Shown here one piece after another: positions 31,764 to 50,138 of a stretch of DNA of 64,000 bases; positions within the stretch are counted from its first letter, which is position 1, and each line of letters starts with the position of its first letter. A program made the translations under genes and the position numbers. This stretch comes from Escherichia coli. GTDB lineage: Bacteria; Pseudomonadota; Gammaproteobacteria; Enterobacterales; Enterobacteriaceae. The stretch lies in NCBI RefSeq assembly GCF_024223415.1, contig NZ_CP100500.1; one strand, given 5' to 3'. The notes beneath the pieces are model-generated. The model made no database searches. It was given only the letters and a program-made list of their open reading frames with translations, and had not been told where the DNA came from.

Positions 31764-31989
31764 GGGTCCTTCCTGGAATTATGGCCCGTTACGGGGCGTC
31801 GACCTCGCGGTTTTTCGCTATTTATGAGATTTTTTGAGGGGGTGGTTGTTGTTTAATTGTTTGGTATATCTAATTGATAAGTAAGGTAAAAATAAAATAA
31901 ATACAACAACCTTACGGTGTATTTTGATGTCATTAATGTGAAAAAATTCAATGATATCAAATGGTTTTGTAAAAACATATGGTTGTTGT
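31764..31989 (+). other. cos-1: lambda-type cohesive-end site (cosQ GGGTCCT, cosN, cosB with GGTTGTTGT repeats), reading rightward
   Basis: gggtccttcctggaattatggcccgttacg|GGGCGTCGACCT|cgcggtttttcgctatttatgag aligns with the lambda junction GGGTCCTTTCCGGTGATCCGACAGGTTACG|GGGCGGCGACCT|CGCGGGTTTTCGCTATTTATGAA. The 12-nt end equivalent is at 31794-31805. Confidence 0.8.
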
Positions 31990-32163
31990 ATCGCGTATTT
32001 GATGGCGTAACAGAAAGTGATTTTTAACTTTACCGCTCTGTAACTACGGATTATTCCATGCTGGCACGGAGAACGGCTACGGCATGACGCCACCCAGCCT
32101 ATACAGAACAGTAAAGCCGATAAATTGTTAATCACGCGCAGCAATGCGTGTGATTTTTGCACA

Positions 32164-32359
32164 CTTCCGGTTAACGGGTACGATGTCCGGTTTGTTTGTA
32201 CATTTTTTGCACATGTCCGGTTCGCAGAAAGCATGTTTTTATATTTTTCATATAGTTAACTTGCAGAGAAACCGGACATGGATCCCGAAAAATTTTCATA
32301 AATAGTGAAAACGCGCGAGGTCGACGCCCCGTAACGGGTCCACATGCCGGAAAGGACCC
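32164..32359 (-). other. cos-2: second lambda-type cos site in inverted orientation (cosB with ATGTCCGGTT repeats), reading leftward
   Basis: The minus strand reads gggtcctttccggcatgtggacccgttacg|GGGCGTCGACCT|cgcgcgttttcactatttatgaaaattttc. The 12-nt end equivalent is at 32329-32318. Confidence 0.8.
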
Positions 32360-32816: not shown

Positions 32817-33152
32817 TTATCGGGCCAGCGGCTGAACGGATACGCCGGAACCCGCAAAGGCGGCGCATTTTTTCGCATCGGTGTCGACGCTGTCAGGCCA
32901 GTTAACGGCGGCAATATTGAATATCCCCGTTTTGTAACACTGTGCTGATTTCTGCTTTGACGTGTCCACGGGGTGCGAAGTCAGATAAACAGCTTTGCCA
33001 GATTCCTGACCATCCCACGCCTTAAACTCGCCATTGTCTGCCAGCATCAGCGGGGTAAATTCCTGAATAACGCCAGCATCAGCGGCAAAATGTACCAGCG
33101 TCGTGGATACCTGCTGGCTGCCTGCAAATAACTCAATATATGGAGCGTCCAT
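32817..33152 (-). CDS. Head decoration protein, lambda gpD family
   Basis: TPLMLADNGEFKAWDG and YKTGIFNIAAVNWP...KKCAAFAGSGVSV align with lambda gpD TPLMLDTSSRKLVAWDG and YKSGTFRYEDVLWP...KKRTAFAGTAISI. Confidence 0.85.
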   Translation of the reverse strand: MDAPYIELFAGSQQVSTTLVHFAADAGVIQEFTPLMLADNGEFKAWDGQESGKAVYLTSHPVDTSKQKSAQCYKTGIFNIAAVNWPDSVDTDAKKCAAFAGSGVSVQPLAR

Positions 33153-33163
33153 AGAATCCCCCG

Positions 33164-34219
33164 TTAAGCAATTTTGACGGTAACAAATTTGCGAATATCT
33201 GCCGGTACCGGCTGCGGTGCGCTGTGCGTCTGCACGTACTCAATCGCCGGATCGCCGTCCTCAATCCAGTTTTTCGGGTAGTACATGTTTTGCGTTGCGC
33301 CCGTTCTTACCGCTTCCTGATCCATAATCGCACCATATGCCACAAGCCCTTTATTGTTGGTGTTACCCAGGACAAGCAAATCAGGCTCAAGGAAATATTT
33401 TTCGGTGCCGTCGCTGTCAGTGTATTTGCCGGAATAGACGATAAGGGCCAGATCACCAAGATAGCCTTTAAAGCTCACCACTTCGCCCAGGTTTTTACAG
33501 GCCAGCTCGGCGGCGGATTCTGAGCCACGGTAAAGATCGTACAGTTCACGGAATTTTTTAAAGCTGCGTAATGTGCGCCATGCCTCACCGCCCATAATCA
33601 TGACGTTGGCGGGGCAACCTGCCTGATCAGCATAAAGCTCGATGTCATAGATTGGGTCGTGCATGTCTTTATCCTGCTGGGACCATTTTTTACCACTGGC
33701 CTGCTGTATGATGCAGTTTTCCGGTATTTTCCAGTCGATTTCATAGCGTTCTATGCCTTCGCCCTCAATGATGTTTTTTCCGGTCGTTACCGCATTCACC
33801 GCCAGCCATTCCACGCGCGCCTTAATGGCGTTTATCTGGCGGCGCATGTTGCCAGTAATCAGGCGCATACGGCGGTAAGTTGGATCGTTAAGCTGTGCCG
33901 GATCTTCTCCAGCCATGCGCATGATGGTCTTTGTTGGATCGATTTCGTGCTTTGGCTTCATGTAGCCTGGTTTAATCGTGCTGGTTTCGTACCCTTTATC
34001 GCGCTGGACCTGACTACCCACCATAGGAGAACAGAACGCTGACATCGTAACCTCTTCAATGTCCAGGGTGTCCAGCATGATGTTTTGGGTGTTGAAGGTC
34101 GCCACGTTCGGGAAAAACAGCGTGGTAAACAGCGGACTAAATTTAAATTCCGAAATATCCCCGCGATTCAGGTACGCGAAAAGCTGGTTAGTTGTAAGTG
34201 CCGTTGCTTTGCCTGTCAT
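33164..34219 (-). CDS. Major capsid protein, lambda gpE family
   Basis: FKFSPLFTTLFF, PGYMKPKHEIDP, DPTYRRMRLI, IVYSGKY and YPKNWIEDGDPAIEY align with lambda gpE FKFDPLFLRLFF, PGYVKPKHEVNP, DPAYRRRRII, VVYSGQY and YPKNWVTTGDPAREF. Confidence 0.9.
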   Translation of the reverse strand: MTGKATALTTNQLFAYLNRGDISEFKFSPLFTTLFFPNVATFNTQNIMLDTLDIEEVTMSAFCSPMVGSQVQRDKGYETSTIKPGYMKPKHEIDPTKTIMRMAGEDPAQLNDPTYRRMRLITGNMRRQINAIKARVEWLAVNAVTTGKNIIEGEGIERYEIDWKIPENCIIQQASGKKWSQQDKDMHDPIYDIELYADQAGCPANVMIMGGEAWRTLRSFKKFRELYDLYRGSESAAELACKNLGEVVSFKGYLGDLALIVYSGKYTDSDGTEKYFLEPDLLVLGNTNNKGLVAYGAIMDQEAVRTGATQNMYYPKNWIEDGDPAIEYVQTHSAPQPVPADIRKFVTVKIA

Positions 34220-34425
34220 TATTCACCTCCGTGAACCTGATTGATACCCAGCGCCGCACGTAAATAGGTACGCACCTGCCAGCCTGTTGACGGCTCAACC
34301 ATCGCCAGCGGATCAAGTCCTGCCGCAATGCCTGCTTTTACATTCTGCTGGTGGCGTTCCTTGAGCGCCTCCACGATGTCGGGGCTTATGTAGACCGTCA
34401 CCCCGCCTTTTTTCTCTTCTGCCAT
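34219..34425 (-). CDS. Hypothetical 68-aa protein, first gene of the capsid operon
   Basis: The RBS AGAGGAA precedes the ATG, and the stop overlaps the capsid gene start (ATGA coupling). Confidence 0.6.
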   Translation of the reverse strand: MAEEKKGGVTVYISPDIVEALKERHQQNVKAGIAAGLDPLAMVEPSTGWQVRTYLRAALGINQVHGGE

Positions 34426-34459
34426 AGTCAGAAATTCCTCTTTGACTTAAAAAATCATA

Positions 34460-34509
34460 ACTGGATGTTCATCCAGTCCTGATTATAATCATGATTGCAT
34501 TTTGCGCAA
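34460..34509 (-). promoter_or_regulatory. Candidate sigma70 promoter of the capsid operon with an overlapping palindromic operator
   Basis: The minus strand reads TTGCGC (34509-34504), a 16-nt spacer, then TATAAT (34487-34482). The inverted repeat ACTGGATG-aa-CATCCAGT (34477-34460) follows at about +1. Confidence 0.5.
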
Positions 34510-34592
34510 CAATATTGAGTTACGTTGCAAATTATGAAATGATTATCCCGATCATGTGTGCCAGTGCACCATAAAAAACCTCGTATACAAAA

Positions 34593-34630
34593 GCCCGATA
34601 AGCCCCCTGTGACCTTATCGGGCTTTTTTT
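34593..34630. terminator. Hairpin terminator upstream of the capsid promoter
   Basis: GCCCGATAAG-11 nt-CTTATCGGGC hairpin followed by TTTTTTT on the plus strand and by TTTTG on the minus strand. Confidence 0.6.
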
Positions 34631-34636
34631 AGGCGT

Positions 34637-34658
34637 AAAAAAGCCGGATTGCTCCGGC
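34637..34658 (-). terminator. Rho-independent terminator after the ProQ/FinO-like gene
   Basis: The minus strand reads GCCGGA-gcaa-TCCGGC followed by TTTTTT, 26 nt after the stop at 34684. Confidence 0.75.
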
Positions 34659-34683: not shown

Positions 34684-35278
34684 TTATGCTTTCCGTACGC
34701 CCGAGGAACTGGCATTTTTCAGAATAATATTATGCCCTGCTGGTGGCTTACCGTTATGCTTATTTTCTGCCTTCATGTTTCTGCGCTCCTGCTGTTTTTT
34801 CTTCATCTCATCCAGTCGCTTCCCCGCGTTCAACTGGTGCTCCTGTGTCACCTCCCCGCACGGATGGCCTTTCAGGTCGTAACGCACGCCACCAGCCATC
34901 AGGGAACGGTAATATCGCACTGAACTGACATAATACGCCAGCGTTGCGCGAAGCGCTCCCTGACCTAATGAAATACCTCTCGCAGTAATATCCTCCATCA
35001 GGTCATCAAATATGCCAACCTTAAGCGGTCTGGGCGATTCCTGGCTGAAAAGTTCAGGCCAGAGCGCGGCAAGGCGTTCAACGCGTCTGATATTTTTTTT
35101 CCGGCTCTTTTCTGATTTGCGTTTTGCTGCCGTCTTCTGTTGTGTTTTCTGCTCGCGGCTCTGCTTTTGCGCTGGTGTGGTTTTATCCGGCTGTTCAGCC
35201 TCCTGCGTCTTTTTCTGCGGTGTGCCGTATATGCCTTTTGGTTTTCGGTTAATGGTCAGCTTTGTCATGTTCTCCCCC
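34684..35278 (-). CDS. ProQ/FinO-domain RNA-binding protein with a lysine-rich N-terminal tail
   Basis: PRPLKVGIFDDL...LRATLAYYVSSVRYYRSL..GGVRYDLKGHPCGEVTQEH aligns with E. coli ProQ ARPLKIGIFQDL...LRSALRLYTSSWRYLYGV..GATRVDLDGNPCGELDEQH. The preferred start is MTKLTINRK at 35278, behind the RBS AGGGGGAG. The track ORF extends to 35364. Confidence 0.8.
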
Positions 35279-35347
35279 TTTGTGCTGTTCCACCAGCGGC
35301 ATCTGCTACCCCGTGTCGCTCCCGCTGGTGTCGTGTTTCCCCGCCTG

Positions 35348-35668
35348 TTAATAACCGTCATCATTTACGTTATCAGGGTAATCACGCCATATTTCATCAG
35401 TAAGCGACGGTAGCCCCATCTGTTGTATTGTCCTGTCTGCGGCCCTTCTGACTGCGTGAACATCATAACGGTTTTCAGGTATCGGGCGCTTTGCCTTCCT
35501 GATACATTCCCTTGCTCTCATTGCCGCAAGTTCTCTGTGCCTGTCTTCCTGAAGAGTAATCATCACATCCTGCCACCTTCTGGCAGCCCGTCGCCACAGT
35601 CCCCTGCTCTCGAGTTCTTCTGCTGTCGCGTCGCTTATTGTCCGGTTCTTCGGTGTGCTGTTGTTCAT
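35348..35668 (-). CDS. PerC-family (PerC/Pch-like) transcriptional regulator
   Basis: This is a 106-aa ORF. The N-terminal AEELESRGLWRRAARRW motif resembles the PerC signature. The call is made from memory of the family only. Confidence 0.55.
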   Translation of the reverse strand: MNNSTPKNRTISDATAEELESRGLWRRAARRWQDVMITLQEDRHRELAAMRARECIRKAKRPIPENRYDVHAVRRAADRTIQQMGLPSLTDEIWRDYPDNVNDDGY

Positions 35669-40498: not shown

Positions 40499-40596
40499 AC
40501 AAATACGGTAAATCATCGGATATGGGTAAAAACAGTTCCCACCGTTTTTAAACGGTATACACCGTTTTTTATATTGATGATTTGAAATGGAATTAT

Positions 40597-40619
40597 AAAA
40601 AAAGCGGCATTTCTGCCGC
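40597..40619 (-). terminator. Rho-independent terminator after the int-orf83 unit
   Basis: The minus strand reads GCGGCA-gaaa-TGCCGC followed by TTTTTTT. Confidence 0.75.
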
Positions 40620-40630
40620 TTCCAGGATTG

Positions 40631-40882
40631 TTACCGCCATTTTTTGGGCCTGCCTCCGATCTTCATAGATGCCGGACGTACGACCTTATCAATACTTACC
40701 GCCAGATTTCTGGAAGCGCCACGGGATACCAGAAAATCTACTACCTGTTTTTTTGATGGGGCCGTCGTCCTGTCCTCCGGATCGTAGGTTGACCAAAATT
40801 CATGCTGAACCATCAGGGCCAGTTGCAGCCCGTCGCAATTGCATCTGATATTTTTTTGCATCTTAACGGTTTCATGTTTCAC
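40631..40882 (-). CDS. Hypothetical 83-aa protein downstream of int
   Basis: The ORF ends in a basic C-terminus (GGRPKKWR). I do not recognise the family. Confidence 0.5.
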   Translation of the reverse strand: MKHETVKMQKNIRCNCDGLQLALMVQHEFWSTYDPEDRTTAPSKKQVVDFLVSRGASRNLAVSIDKVVRPASMKIGGRPKKWR

Positions 40883-40959
40883 GGCCTTGTCGTTAAATTT
40901 GATGCAATTATACGACGGTTTTACATGGTTTTCGTAGTTTTTACTGGTTTTCTGTACAG

Positions 40960-42219
40960 CTACACGGCTCGGATACCCCTTTTACCACTGGCGAGGGTTA
41001 CGCCCGTCGCCGCAGCCTCGACAAATTCGCCCCACCAGCGCATCAGCACGATGCGTTTTTCTATGTAGTTGCTCCGGTTGTATGCCCGTCTAACTTCGTT
41101 GGTGTCGACGTGGGCAAGTGCCGCCTCTATTACGTCCGGCTCGAATCCTTCCTCGTTCGCTGCTGTGCTGAATATGGCGCGTAATCCATGAGACACCAGC
41201 ACGCCAGCGAATCCCATACGCCGCAATGCTGCGTTAGCTGTCTGGCTGTTCATCGGCTGCTGTGGGTCTTTCAGACTTGGGAAAACGTAATTGCGGTGGT
41301 GGCTGATTGGTTTCATGGCCTCCAGCACCGCCATAGCCTGACCGGAAAGCGGGATAACGTGATCCCTGCGCATCTTCATGCGTCCGGCAGGTATCGTCCA
41401 TTGCTTCGCGTCCAGGTTGATTTCATCCCACCGCGTTGATGACGCTTCGGCGGGACGGGTTACGGTCAGTAACTGCCATTCAATCAGTAATCTGGTCTGC
41501 CGTTCTGTTGCCGATACTGATAAAGCCTGCATAAGCTCGGGCAGCTGTTCGGGGCGGATTGTTGGCATATGTTTTTTTACAGGTGAGGGAAACGCCTTAC
41601 GCACATTCATAGCCGGATTGGCATCAATCAGCCCACTGTTGGCGGCGTAATCCATTACCTCATTAACGCGCTGTAAAACCCGCTTGAGTGTTTCCAGGTT
41701 GCCGCGCTCCTTGATGGGGGTAAGCACTTCAACGAACCTTCGGGCGGTGAGGGTATCTATTGGCGTGTTGCCGATGAACGGGAATACATATTTATCCAGC
41801 GAACGCCAGATGTCTTTAATCGTGTTGGGGGCCAGATTCTGGCTGATTTTCACCTGGTACCATGCCGCCGCCACATTTTCGAACGTGTTCCCTTGTCTTC
41901 GGGCCTCTGTCTCTCTTTTTTGCCTCTCGTGGTCCTGCGGGTCAGTTCCGGCACTGATTAACGTCCTGTACTCGCTACGGCGTTTTCTGGCATCAGCCAG
42001 GGAAACATCTTCAAGCGATCCAAAACTCAGCAATATTCTTTTTTTGTCCGATGGTCGGTAGTAGGAAAATCTCCAGAGTTTTGATCCAGACGGTTTGACC
42101 AGGAGAAAAAGCCCTCCGCCGTCCTGCAGGGTGTACTCCTTTTGCGCTGGTCTGGCTGCTTTGATCTGCACTGTGGTTAATGGGTGTGTTTTTCTCGCCA
42201 TATGTCTATGATTCCACAC
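40960..42219 (-). CDS. int: Tyrosine integrase, P4/CP4-57 (DUF4102 N-terminal arm-binding) type
   Basis: The N-terminus reads LTTVQIKAARPAQKEYTLQDGGGLFLLVKPSGSKLWRFSY. The catalytic region contains HGLRAIFST..ALAHV and RAYNRSNY. An alternative start MARKTHP lies at 42201. The gene is adjacent to the tRNA. Confidence 0.9.
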   Translation of the reverse strand: MWNHRHMARKTHPLTTVQIKAARPAQKEYTLQDGGGLFLLVKPSGSKLWRFSYYRPSDKKRILLSFGSLEDVSLADARKRRSEYRTLISAGTDPQDHERQKRETEARRQGNTFENVAAAWYQVKISQNLAPNTIKDIWRSLDKYVFPFIGNTPIDTLTARRFVEVLTPIKERGNLETLKRVLQRVNEVMDYAANSGLIDANPAMNVRKAFPSPVKKHMPTIRPEQLPELMQALSVSATERQTRLLIEWQLLTVTRPAEASSTRWDEINLDAKQWTIPAGRMKMRRDHVIPLSGQAMAVLEAMKPISHHRNYVFPSLKDPQQPMNSQTANAALRRMGFAGVLVSHGLRAIFSTAANEEGFEPDVIEAALAHVDTNEVRRAYNRSNYIEKRIVLMRWWGEFVEAAATGVTLASGKRGIRAV

Positions 42220-48947: not shown

Positions 48948-50138
48948 GTGACCACCCGACAGCATTCGTCGTTTGCTATTGTTTTTATCCTTGGCCTGCT
49001 GGCCATGTTGATGCCGCTGTCGATTGATATGTATCTGCCCGCGCTACCGGTAATTTCAGCGCAGTTTGGCGTACCGGCGGGCAGTACGCAGATGACCCTC
49101 AGTACTTATATTCTGGGCTTTGCGTTGGGGCAGTTAATCTACGGGCCGATGGCAGACAGCTTCGGGCGTAAGCCGGTGGTTCTTGGCGGTACGCTGGTGT
49201 TTGCCGCCGCCGCGGTGGCGTGTGCGTTGGCACAAACCATCGATCAGCTGATTGTGATGCGTTTCTTCCACGGGCTGGCGGCGGCTGCGGCCAGCGTGGT
49301 TATCAACGCCTTGATGCGTGATATCTACCCGAAAGAAGAGTTCTCGCGGATGATGTCGTTTGTCATGCTGGTGACAACCATTGCACCGCTGATGGCACCG
49401 ATAGTTGGCGGCTGGGTGCTGGTGTGGCTGAGCTGGCATTACATCTTCTGGATCCTCGCCGTGGCGGCGATTTTGGCTTCGGCAATGATCTTCTTTCTGA
49501 TCAAAGAAACCTTACCACCGGAGCGTCGCCAGCCTTTTCACATTCGTACCACTATTGGTAACTTTGCGGCGCTGTTCCGCCATAAACGTGTCCTGAGCTA
49601 CATGCTTGCCAGTGGTTTCAGCTTTGCCGGGATGTTCTCGTTCTTAAGCGCCGGACCGTTTGTCTACATTGAAATTAACCACGTCGCGCCGGAAAACTTT
49701 GGTTATTACTTTGCACTAAACATTGTTTTCCTGTTCGTGATGACCATCTTTAATAGCCGCTTCGTCCGCCGTATTGGCGCGTTAAATATGTTCCGCTCTG
49801 GGTTGTGGATACAATTTATTATGGCAGCGTGGATGGTCATCAGTGCGCTGCTGGGGCTGGGATTTTGGTCGCTGGTGGTTGGCGTTGCGGCGTTTGTGGG
49901 CTGCGTGTCGATGGTGTCATCCAATGCGATGGCGGTCATTCTTGATGAGTTTCCCCATATGGCGGGAACGGCATCTTCGCTGGCAGGAACCTTCCGTTTT
50001 GGCATAGGGGCAATTGTTGGCGCATTGCTTTCTCTTGCGACCTTTAACTCTGCATGGCCGATGATTTGGTCAATTGCATTCTGCGCAACCAGCTCCATTC
50101 TCTTCTGTCTGTACGCCAGTCGGCCGAAAAAACGGTGA
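48948..50138 (+). CDS. bcr: MFS bicyclomycin/multidrug efflux transporter Bcr
   Basis: This is a 396-aa, 12-transmembrane ORF with a GTG start and the motif [11 protein letters not shown]. Confidence 0.92.

Follow-up and report, generated by a model that had tools for sequence, protein, structure and literature searches.

What controls the capsid genes of a phage satellite? The question is raised by a 64,000-nucleotide (nt) stretch of Escherichia coli contig NZ_CP100500.1 (assembly GCF_024223415.1), hereafter the window, which carries a satellite on its minus strand. In this island, an intergenic region lies between a ProQ/FinO-family gene and a capsid operon whose first gene encodes a 68-aa protein. 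The original prediction described this region as two terminators that insulate the operon, a near-consensus promoter and a palindrome at the start site, and proposed that the palindrome is bound by a dimeric DNA-binding protein. All four elements were found by a sequence check at the minus-strand coordinates that it had reported. We conclude that the palindrome is probably the operator of the host LexA repressor, such that the capsid genes would be switched on by the SOS signal. Here and below, promoter activity, the transcription start, LexA binding, SOS inducibility and termination are predicted from sequence.

A candidate LexA operator at the capsid promoter

The promoter and start-site region comprises the following features.

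34482..34509, minus strand: predicted sigma-70 promoter, with -35 hexamer TTGCGC (34509-34504), 16-nt spacer and -10 hexamer TATAAT (34487-34482)
34477-34460, minus strand: palindrome ACTGGATG-aa-CATCCAGT, a perfect 8+8 inverted repeat in the sequence
34459..34478, both strands: candidate LexA operator (SOS box) GACTGGATGAACATCCAGTT, which encloses the palindrome and spans about -3 to +17 of the predicted promoter
34426..34458, minus strand: U-rich 5' leader with ribosome-binding site (AAGAGGAA; GAGG at 34440-34437), upstream of the ATG at 34425

To compare this region among relatives, we gathered 80 IMG/VR loci via the capsid protein, together with six E. coli genome loci. Remote relatives of the 68-aa protein added five more lineages, namely Salmonella, Edwardsiella and three from metagenomes. 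The resulting comparison set comprised 60 distinct non-Edwardsiella sequences plus the Edwardsiella loci (L089-L092) and L099. The phage collection held no DNA match to the capsid-operon control region, and Rfam yielded nothing close to gathering scores for it.

The promoter was only partly as first described. Its -10 hexamer matches the consensus at 6/6 positions, whereas the -35 hexamer shares only TTG with TTGACA (3/6), which is why a consensus scan did not call it. Nevertheless, conservation supports a promoter that belongs to the capsid operon itself: the TTGCnn-16-TA(T/A)AAT geometry occurs in 62/62 distinct sequences and in L099, that is, in all six lineages. From the position of this promoter, transcription is predicted to start at about 34477-34474. 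The -10 hexamer is invariably TATAAT save for one TGTAAT (L084) and for TAAAAT in two lineages. The latter are those without a LexA box (Edwardsiella L089-L092 and L099), while all box-bearing lineages have the perfect hexamer apart from L084; the stronger -10 and the LexA operator thus appear to go together. We also observed that GATTATAATC, at 34481-34490, is its own reverse complement and presents a perfect -10 hexamer on both strands. The leader and its Shine-Dalgarno sequence are conserved in the homologue alignment, and the T-run that follows the box is gone in L094 and L095.

The palindrome begins 4 nt past the -10 hexamer, rather than the roughly 5 nt first reported, and lies within GACTGGATGAACATCCAGTT. 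This sequence has a CTG-N10-CAG core, and its CTGGAT/ATCCAG half-sites are identical to those of the ruvA box, CGCTGGATATCTATCCAGCA, one of 18 LexA boxes of UV-induced genes listed in Table 4 of PMC3009722. We built a symmetrised weight matrix from these 18 boxes. According to this matrix, GACTGGATGAACATCCAGTT scores 18.56 bits, with a heterology index of about 8.1-8.5; the published sites, each scored with itself left out, range from 7.0 to 28.2 bits and from 0.6 to 12.8 in heterology index. Among them, ruvA scores 18.5 bits, lexA 19.3, cho 19.7, uvrD 16.2, ftsK 16.3, dinG 14.3, dinB 13.5 and polB 7.0. GACTGGATGAACATCCAGTT is the top LexA match of the 64-kb window, and none as good occurred in 20 random windows; 10 Mb of random sequence contained 5 matches of at least 18.5 bits. 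The score remained 17.96 bits with a matrix that lacked the look-alikes ruvA, cho and uvrB. The exact box sequences were not found in the searchable literature.

The match is conserved in position and in sequence. In 59 of the 60 distinct homologues, the best LexA match within about 310 nt starts 3 nt past the -10 hexamer and scores 16.3-22.6 bits. CTG-N10-CAG is kept in every box-bearing variant, with one exception: locus L054 (IMG/VR 2529293138_000005) has a 1-nt insertion in the box centre (GAACAATCCAG) and would be expected not to bind LexA. What stays constant among the variants is CTG-N10-CAG around an A/T-rich centre, and not the 8+8 dyad: the base that precedes CTG can be A, G or T, and the innermost pair of the palindrome is broken in O157 islands. 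Moreover, most internal substitutions raise the LexA score, including G9A, C15A (ATCCAG to ATACAG) and the change of CTGG to CTGT in L094 and L095. Perfect inverted repeats with 8-bp arms exceed chance in the window (36 raw matches, at about 26 distinct places, versus about 7.5 in Markov shuffles). The palindrome has no second copy in the island or elsewhere in the window.

We noted a second LexA-like box, AGCTGTACAGAAAACCAGTA (40942-40961, minus strand), which at 17.4 bits is the second-best match in the window. It begins inside the stop codon of the integrase gene; a TATAAT (40912-40907) follows about 30 nt downstream, ahead of a small open reading frame (ORF; 40631-40882). The stretch from AGCTGTACAGAAAACCAGTA to this TATAAT contains four phased AAAAC repeats and is identical in an island of only 84% overall identity.

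The argument first offered for a protein-binding site, that a 2-nt spacer leaves no room for an RNA hairpin, does not hold. The inner G-C pair can open, and the 7-bp stem that remains closes a GAAC tetraloop with a fold energy of -7.5 to -11.9 kcal/mol; a scan classed the palindrome as terminator-like because ATGATTTTTT follows an 8-pair stem with a 4-nt loop. Natural variants of the region score as follows.

Window and majority forms: hairpin about -8.3 to -8.7 kcal/mol; LexA 18.5-20.2 bits
ATCCAG to ATACAG, three distinct E. coli sequences: hairpin -2.8 kcal/mol; LexA 21.6 bits
L093: hairpin -3.2 kcal/mol; LexA 18.0 bits
L094 and L095 (CACTGTATATAAATTCAGTT and TACTGTATATAAATTCAGTT): hairpin about -1.5 kcal/mol; LexA 19.7 and 22.0 bits

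The palindrome does not behave as a terminator or attenuator: in four natural variants the stem weakens to between -1.5 and -3.2 kcal/mol without compensation, and in L094 and L095 the U-run behind it is lost as well. Because these variants hold the LexA score yet destroy the hairpin, the LexA-like sequence, rather than the stem, appears to be what selection keeps. An RNA hairpin or terminator was rejected on the grounds that natural variants break the stem with no compensating change. The kind of element first proposed, a site for a dimeric DNA-binding protein, therefore stands, since the variants act as an operator would; the steric argument and the proposed ribbon-helix-helix (RHH) binder find no support.

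Terminators and tandem dyads over and upstream of the -35 hexamer

Over and upstream of the -35 hexamer, the minus strand carries two hairpins and two dyads.

34658-34637, minus strand: terminator T1, GCCGGA-gcaa-TCCGGC followed by T6; -14.8 kcal/mol, z -3.9
34630-34589, both strands: terminator T2, A7-GCCCGATAAG-11-nt loop-CTTATCGGGC-T4; -24.2 kcal/mol on the minus strand, -23.0 on the plus strand
34525..34539, minus strand: distal dyad TTTCATAATTTGCAA (TTKC-N7-GMAA), with its centre about 57 nt before the predicted start
34495..34509, minus strand: proximal dyad TTGCGCAAAATGCAA (in most islands ATTGCAYAAAATGCAAT), which overlaps the -35 hexamer and the spacer

T1 follows the ProQ/FinO gene, at the end of the upstream (replication/accessory) unit. 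It is present in 41/60 distinct homologous regions, with five loop variants among E. coli-type islands and, in two divergent lineages, a compensatory change of the stem from GCCGGA/TCCGGC to GCCGGG/CCCGG. T2 was matched in 54/60 distinct sequences, in which ten loops occur on an essentially invariant stem; the sole stem variant is a single-base change in the 3' arm of one distinct sequence. At the position of T2, Salmonella, L093, L094, L099 and Edwardsiella each have a GC-rich hairpin of their own between A and T runs. As the T-run of T2 is better on the plus strand (T7, versus T4 on the minus strand), T2 is likely bidirectional. Like intrinsic terminators, T1 and T2 combine a GC-rich stem and a U-run with a structure kept in relatives. 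Loops that vary on kept stems, the compensatory change in T1 and the replacement hairpins in distant lineages argue that both are real terminators. These conservation signatures agree with the claim that the terminators set the operon apart from the genes upstream, with termination itself predicted, and support the capsid operon as a separate transcription unit.

The most conserved element of the region is one that the original prediction did not mention, the tandem dyads. Their fuller form is TTGCAY-N3-RTGCAA, and the distal dyad lies 30 bp upstream of the proximal one, measured between their centres (32 bp in Edwardsiella). Both occur throughout the 62 distinct sequences and also in L099, that is, in six lineages that include the box-less ones; the conservation is at the level of sequence rather than RNA structure. 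A search for further copies gave none that was convincing in the island, and across the window the number of matches was that expected by chance; two dyad-like sequences, at 50074 and 51800, fall inside chromosomal coding genes. The dyads are also unlike the repeats at the alpA promoter. Because Edwardsiella and L099 keep the dyads without the box, and with the weaker -10 TAAAAT, the dyads look ancestral and the LexA box looks like an added layer. The dyads probably bind a second regulator.

One lead to such a regulator is CytR, whose operators are TGCAA-N2-3-TTGCA, TTGCAA or ...TGCAAC-N10-13-GTTRCATT (PMC3454398). The dyad region contains four pentamers of the TGCAA/TTGCA type, and TTTGCAAC-N13-GTTGC fits the long-spacer form obtained by systematic evolution of ligands by exponential enrichment. 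However, the half-sites within each dyad face the opposite way (TTGCA...TGCAA), the alignment shows no conserved flanking CRP sites, although CytR regulation normally needs them, and nucleoside control would have no obvious biological reason here. CytR is thus only a lead.

Alternative readings of the control region

Several readings other than LexA control were weighed. In one, the palindrome and its U-run would form an RNA element, either a leader terminator or attenuator, which polymerase would pass with the help of a Q- or AlpA-like antiterminator picked up at the promoter, or a hairpin that stabilises the 5' end. The terminator-like call and the fold energies given above speak for this reading, as does the conserved, protein-binding-like dyad in the promoter spacer, an arrangement found at Q-dependent promoters. 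We nevertheless consider it very unlikely: beyond the weakened stems of C15A, L093 and L094/L095, transcription is predicted to begin within the 5' arm, and an RNA made from this promoter would therefore lack part of the stem. Nor does the region resemble a site of Q- or AlpA-type antitermination, as the structure of the downstream hairpin is not conserved and the repeats of the alpA promoter (AAACGGTG) differ, are absent here and have no motif in common with the capsid-operon region. AlpA was dropped as the binder on account of these unrelated repeats. It is somewhat less far-fetched, though still unlikely, that the palindrome is the operator of a dimeric regulator other than LexA, encoded by the satellite or a helper; the 68-aa product, for example, might be an autorepressor. 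A perfect 8+8 inverted repeat at the start site would suit such a protein, the 68-aa protein always accompanies the region, and the N-terminal strand-then-helix of its model is loosely RHH-like. The model as a whole is a beta-hairpin with two helices (predicted local distance difference test score, 77). However, comparison of the protein with solved structures gave no significant match in fold or in sequence, and it shows no similarity to RHH proteins or to any DNA-binding fold; the RHH assignment was dropped on that account. In addition, the island holds no second copy of the palindrome, the variation tracks the LexA consensus and not a private dyad, and two lineages retain the 68-aa gene without the palindrome, which does not fit an autoregulatory pair. 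Readings as sigma-54, FadR, lambda CII, IHF or MarA-box sites were dropped by eye, their spacing or orientation being wrong.

A further reading takes the conserved block as a small antisense RNA, transcribed on the plus strand from GATTATAATC to T2 and perhaps acted on by the ProQ/FinO protein. The -10 hexamer on both strands and the stronger T-run of T2 on the plus strand (T7) are in its favour, and a ProQ/FinO gene adjoins the block both here and in L094. Against it, folding of the plus strand does not outdo that of shuffled sequences (z -0.03), a consensus structure computed for eight lineages reaches -3 kcal/mol with zero compensatory pairs, a usable plus-strand -35 is absent, most block-bearing islands lack ProQ and no Rfam family matches; we give this reading hardly any credence. 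Another reading, which we consider less likely than not, is that the capsid promoter of Gram-negative satellites of this kind is a two-input switch, in which the dyads would bind the real master regulator of the late module. This regulator could be encoded by the satellite, the helper or the host, with CytR and the 68-aa protein as possible candidates, and LexA would have been added convergently, as in staphylococcal islands, to tie expression to the SOS induction of the helper.

A number of observations weigh against LexA as the controlling factor. A LexA box is missing from two of the six lineages, Edwardsiella (L089-L092) and L099, although both retain the promoter and dyads, and LexA would thus not be the universal control. 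GACTGGATGAACATCCAGTT itself departs from the consensus at position 4 of each half-site (CTGG/CCAG versus CTGT/ACAG), has a G/C-containing centre and is a predicted mid-strength site. Because the box core is nearly invariant within E. coli islands, the discrimination between readings rests on few lineages. A helper that infects without an SOS response would leave LexA bound, and the module would therefore need another input if it matters at that time. Finally, PICI capsid genes have been reported to be dispensable for helper-assisted transfer (PMC10111431), which makes the payoff of LexA control unclear.

The satellite and comparable systems

The intergenic region is probably a self-contained control cassette for the satellite's capsid module. 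T1 and T2 would keep out transcription from the AlpA-driven early and replication genes, and the TTGCGC-16-TATAAT promoter would drive the 68-aa protein, the capsid, the decoration protein and a scaffold-like protein. In an undamaged cell, a LexA dimer at about -3 to +17 would block RNA polymerase. Upon DNA damage, active RecA would prompt the self-cleavage of LexA and the promoter would open as resident lambdoid helper prophages are induced. A second regulator, to which the tandem dyads point, would act over and upstream of the -35 hexamer.

Published regulation of Gram-negative phage-inducible chromosomal islands (PICIs) concerns only the AlpA-controlled early promoter, and the timing of capsid and packaging genes is undescribed in the searchable literature. 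The candidate box occurs in the prototype EcCICFT073, the O157:H7 islands and hundreds of E. coli genomes. If LexA control is real, these satellites would respond directly to the SOS signal of the host, alongside the helper prophage. It would also bear on the effect of SOS-inducing antibiotics on satellite gene expression in pathogenic E. coli.

The genes of the island and operon are arranged as follows.

~42.2 to 31.4 kb, minus strand: satellite gene order, that of a Gram-negative PICI
34219..34425, minus strand: 68-aa ORF (phrog_3255), first gene of the operon, ATG at 34425
33164-34219, minus strand: major capsid protein, lambda E family (Pfam PF03864, 1.7e-50; PHROG major head family)
32817-33152, minus strand: head decoration protein, lambda D family (Pfam PF02924, 1.7e-17; PHROG head decoration family)

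In order, the island encodes an integrase, an AlpA-like helix-turn-helix protein, an Icd/primase, a RepA-type helicase, SSB, a PerC-family regulator and the ProQ/FinO protein. Past the intergenic region, the 68-aa protein is followed by the lambda-E-type capsid, the lambda-D-type decoration protein and a 137-aa scaffold-like protein, which resembles the C-terminal scaffold part of lambda C/Nu3. The Phage_cap_E match and the lambda-D-type decoration match support the view that this is a capsid operon, and the RefSeq annotation of an identical locus agrees with the capsid and decoration genes. In E. coli strain 135, that locus is flanked by tRNA-Pro/yejM on one side and yejO on the other. Of 5426 complete E. 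coli genomes, 573 carry the block from T1/T2 to the 68-aa gene at 86-93% identity, O157:H7 among them. Its linkage to the capsid module is independent of the upstream gene, which may be ProQ, a small hypothetical gene, PerC or SSB. In the window, the ProQ/FinO-family RNA chaperone gene (34684-35364, minus strand) is variable cargo directly upstream of T1; such a gene also occurs in the distant lineage L094 (1411-1887), and in other islands its place is taken by PerC, SSB or a small ORF.

Other features of the island lie further from the promoter. A 138-aa ORF (31818-32234, minus strand) has no RefSeq annotation and no match in Pfam or PHROG; it occupies the place of the terminase-small-subunit-like (Rpp) gene of related islands, and the packaging-redirection gene of this island may be diverged or degenerate. 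Between a 93-aa gene and this ORF, CGGGGCGTCGACCTCGCGGTTTTTCG (31792-31817, plus strand) resembles lambda cosN (GGGCGGCGACCTCGCGGGTTTTCG) and is probably the satellite cos site. A cos site within the intergenic region was rejected, as this cosN-like sequence is 2.7 kb away. Upstream of the alpA-like gene (40520-40600, minus strand) are the repeats of AAACGGTG, with an inverted pair, AACGGTGTATACCGTT, among them, preceded by a terminator (40623-40600); these repeats are possible sites of AlpA autoregulation.

Among known LexA operators, the candidate box is most readily compared with those of ruvAB (CGCTGGATATCTATCCAGCA) and cho (CACTGGATAGATAACCAGCA). It shares with them the CTG-N10-CAG core, a similar score (18.6 versus 18.5 and 19.7 bits) and an overlap with the core promoter and start, both predicted here. 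It differs in its setting, before the capsid genes of a satellite and not before a chromosomal DNA-repair gene, and in its centre, which is GAAC and not an A/T-only tetranucleotide.

Mobile elements are known to use host LexA as a sensor, as in colicin operons, where the operator lies just downstream of the -10 hexamer, and at the tum promoter of coliphage 186. The lytic promoters of GIL01 are likewise LexA-controlled in the summary given in PMC13492144. The likeness to these systems lies in the timing by LexA of costly or lethal functions of a mobile element. The genes concerned differ: lysis, toxin and lytic-switch genes there, and here the structural capsid module of a satellite that is unable to form particles alone.

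A counterpart of the same family is EcCICFT073, the prototype Gram-negative PICI, located between roxA and phoQ in CFT073. It has T1, T2, both dyads, the TATAAT and the box (AACTGGATGAACATCCAGTT) in an identical arrangement, and the region equivalent to 34440-34520 is at about 1385370-1385440 of NC_004431.1. By contrast, the island in the window is at tRNA-Pro (yejM/yejO), has the ProQ/FinO gene upstream of T1 and seemingly lacks an intact rpp/terS-like gene. The literature on EcCICFT073 (Fillol-Salom et al. 2018, 2019) deals with the alpA promoter, replication, cos and Rpp, and does not cover the capsid promoter. In the Gram-negative PICI papers that we consulted, we found no report of LexA control; LexA is mentioned there only through the citation of Ubeda et al.

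That citation concerns the staphylococcal pathogenicity islands (SaPIs), whose operon I, for packaging and capsid morphogenesis, is LexA-controlled (Ubeda et al. 2007, Mol Microbiol 65:41, as cited in PMC6092414 and PMC6739421). In the E. coli island, an arrangement of this type is seen at the level of sequence: terminators, then a predicted promoter with a candidate LexA box, then capsid genes. SaPIs are Gram-positive elements repressed by Stl, with a LexA motif of the GAAC-N4-GTTC type, and their genes (terS, cpm) remodel helper capsids. Their operon I promoter is reportedly under host LexA, separate from the master regulator. The lineages are unrelated and the elements are not homologous, and the E. 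coli island encodes lambda E and D homologues. A LexA-repressed capsid promoter here would thus be convergent with SaPI operon I, and, if it is one, the islands of staphylococci and of enterobacteria would have arrived at this solution separately.

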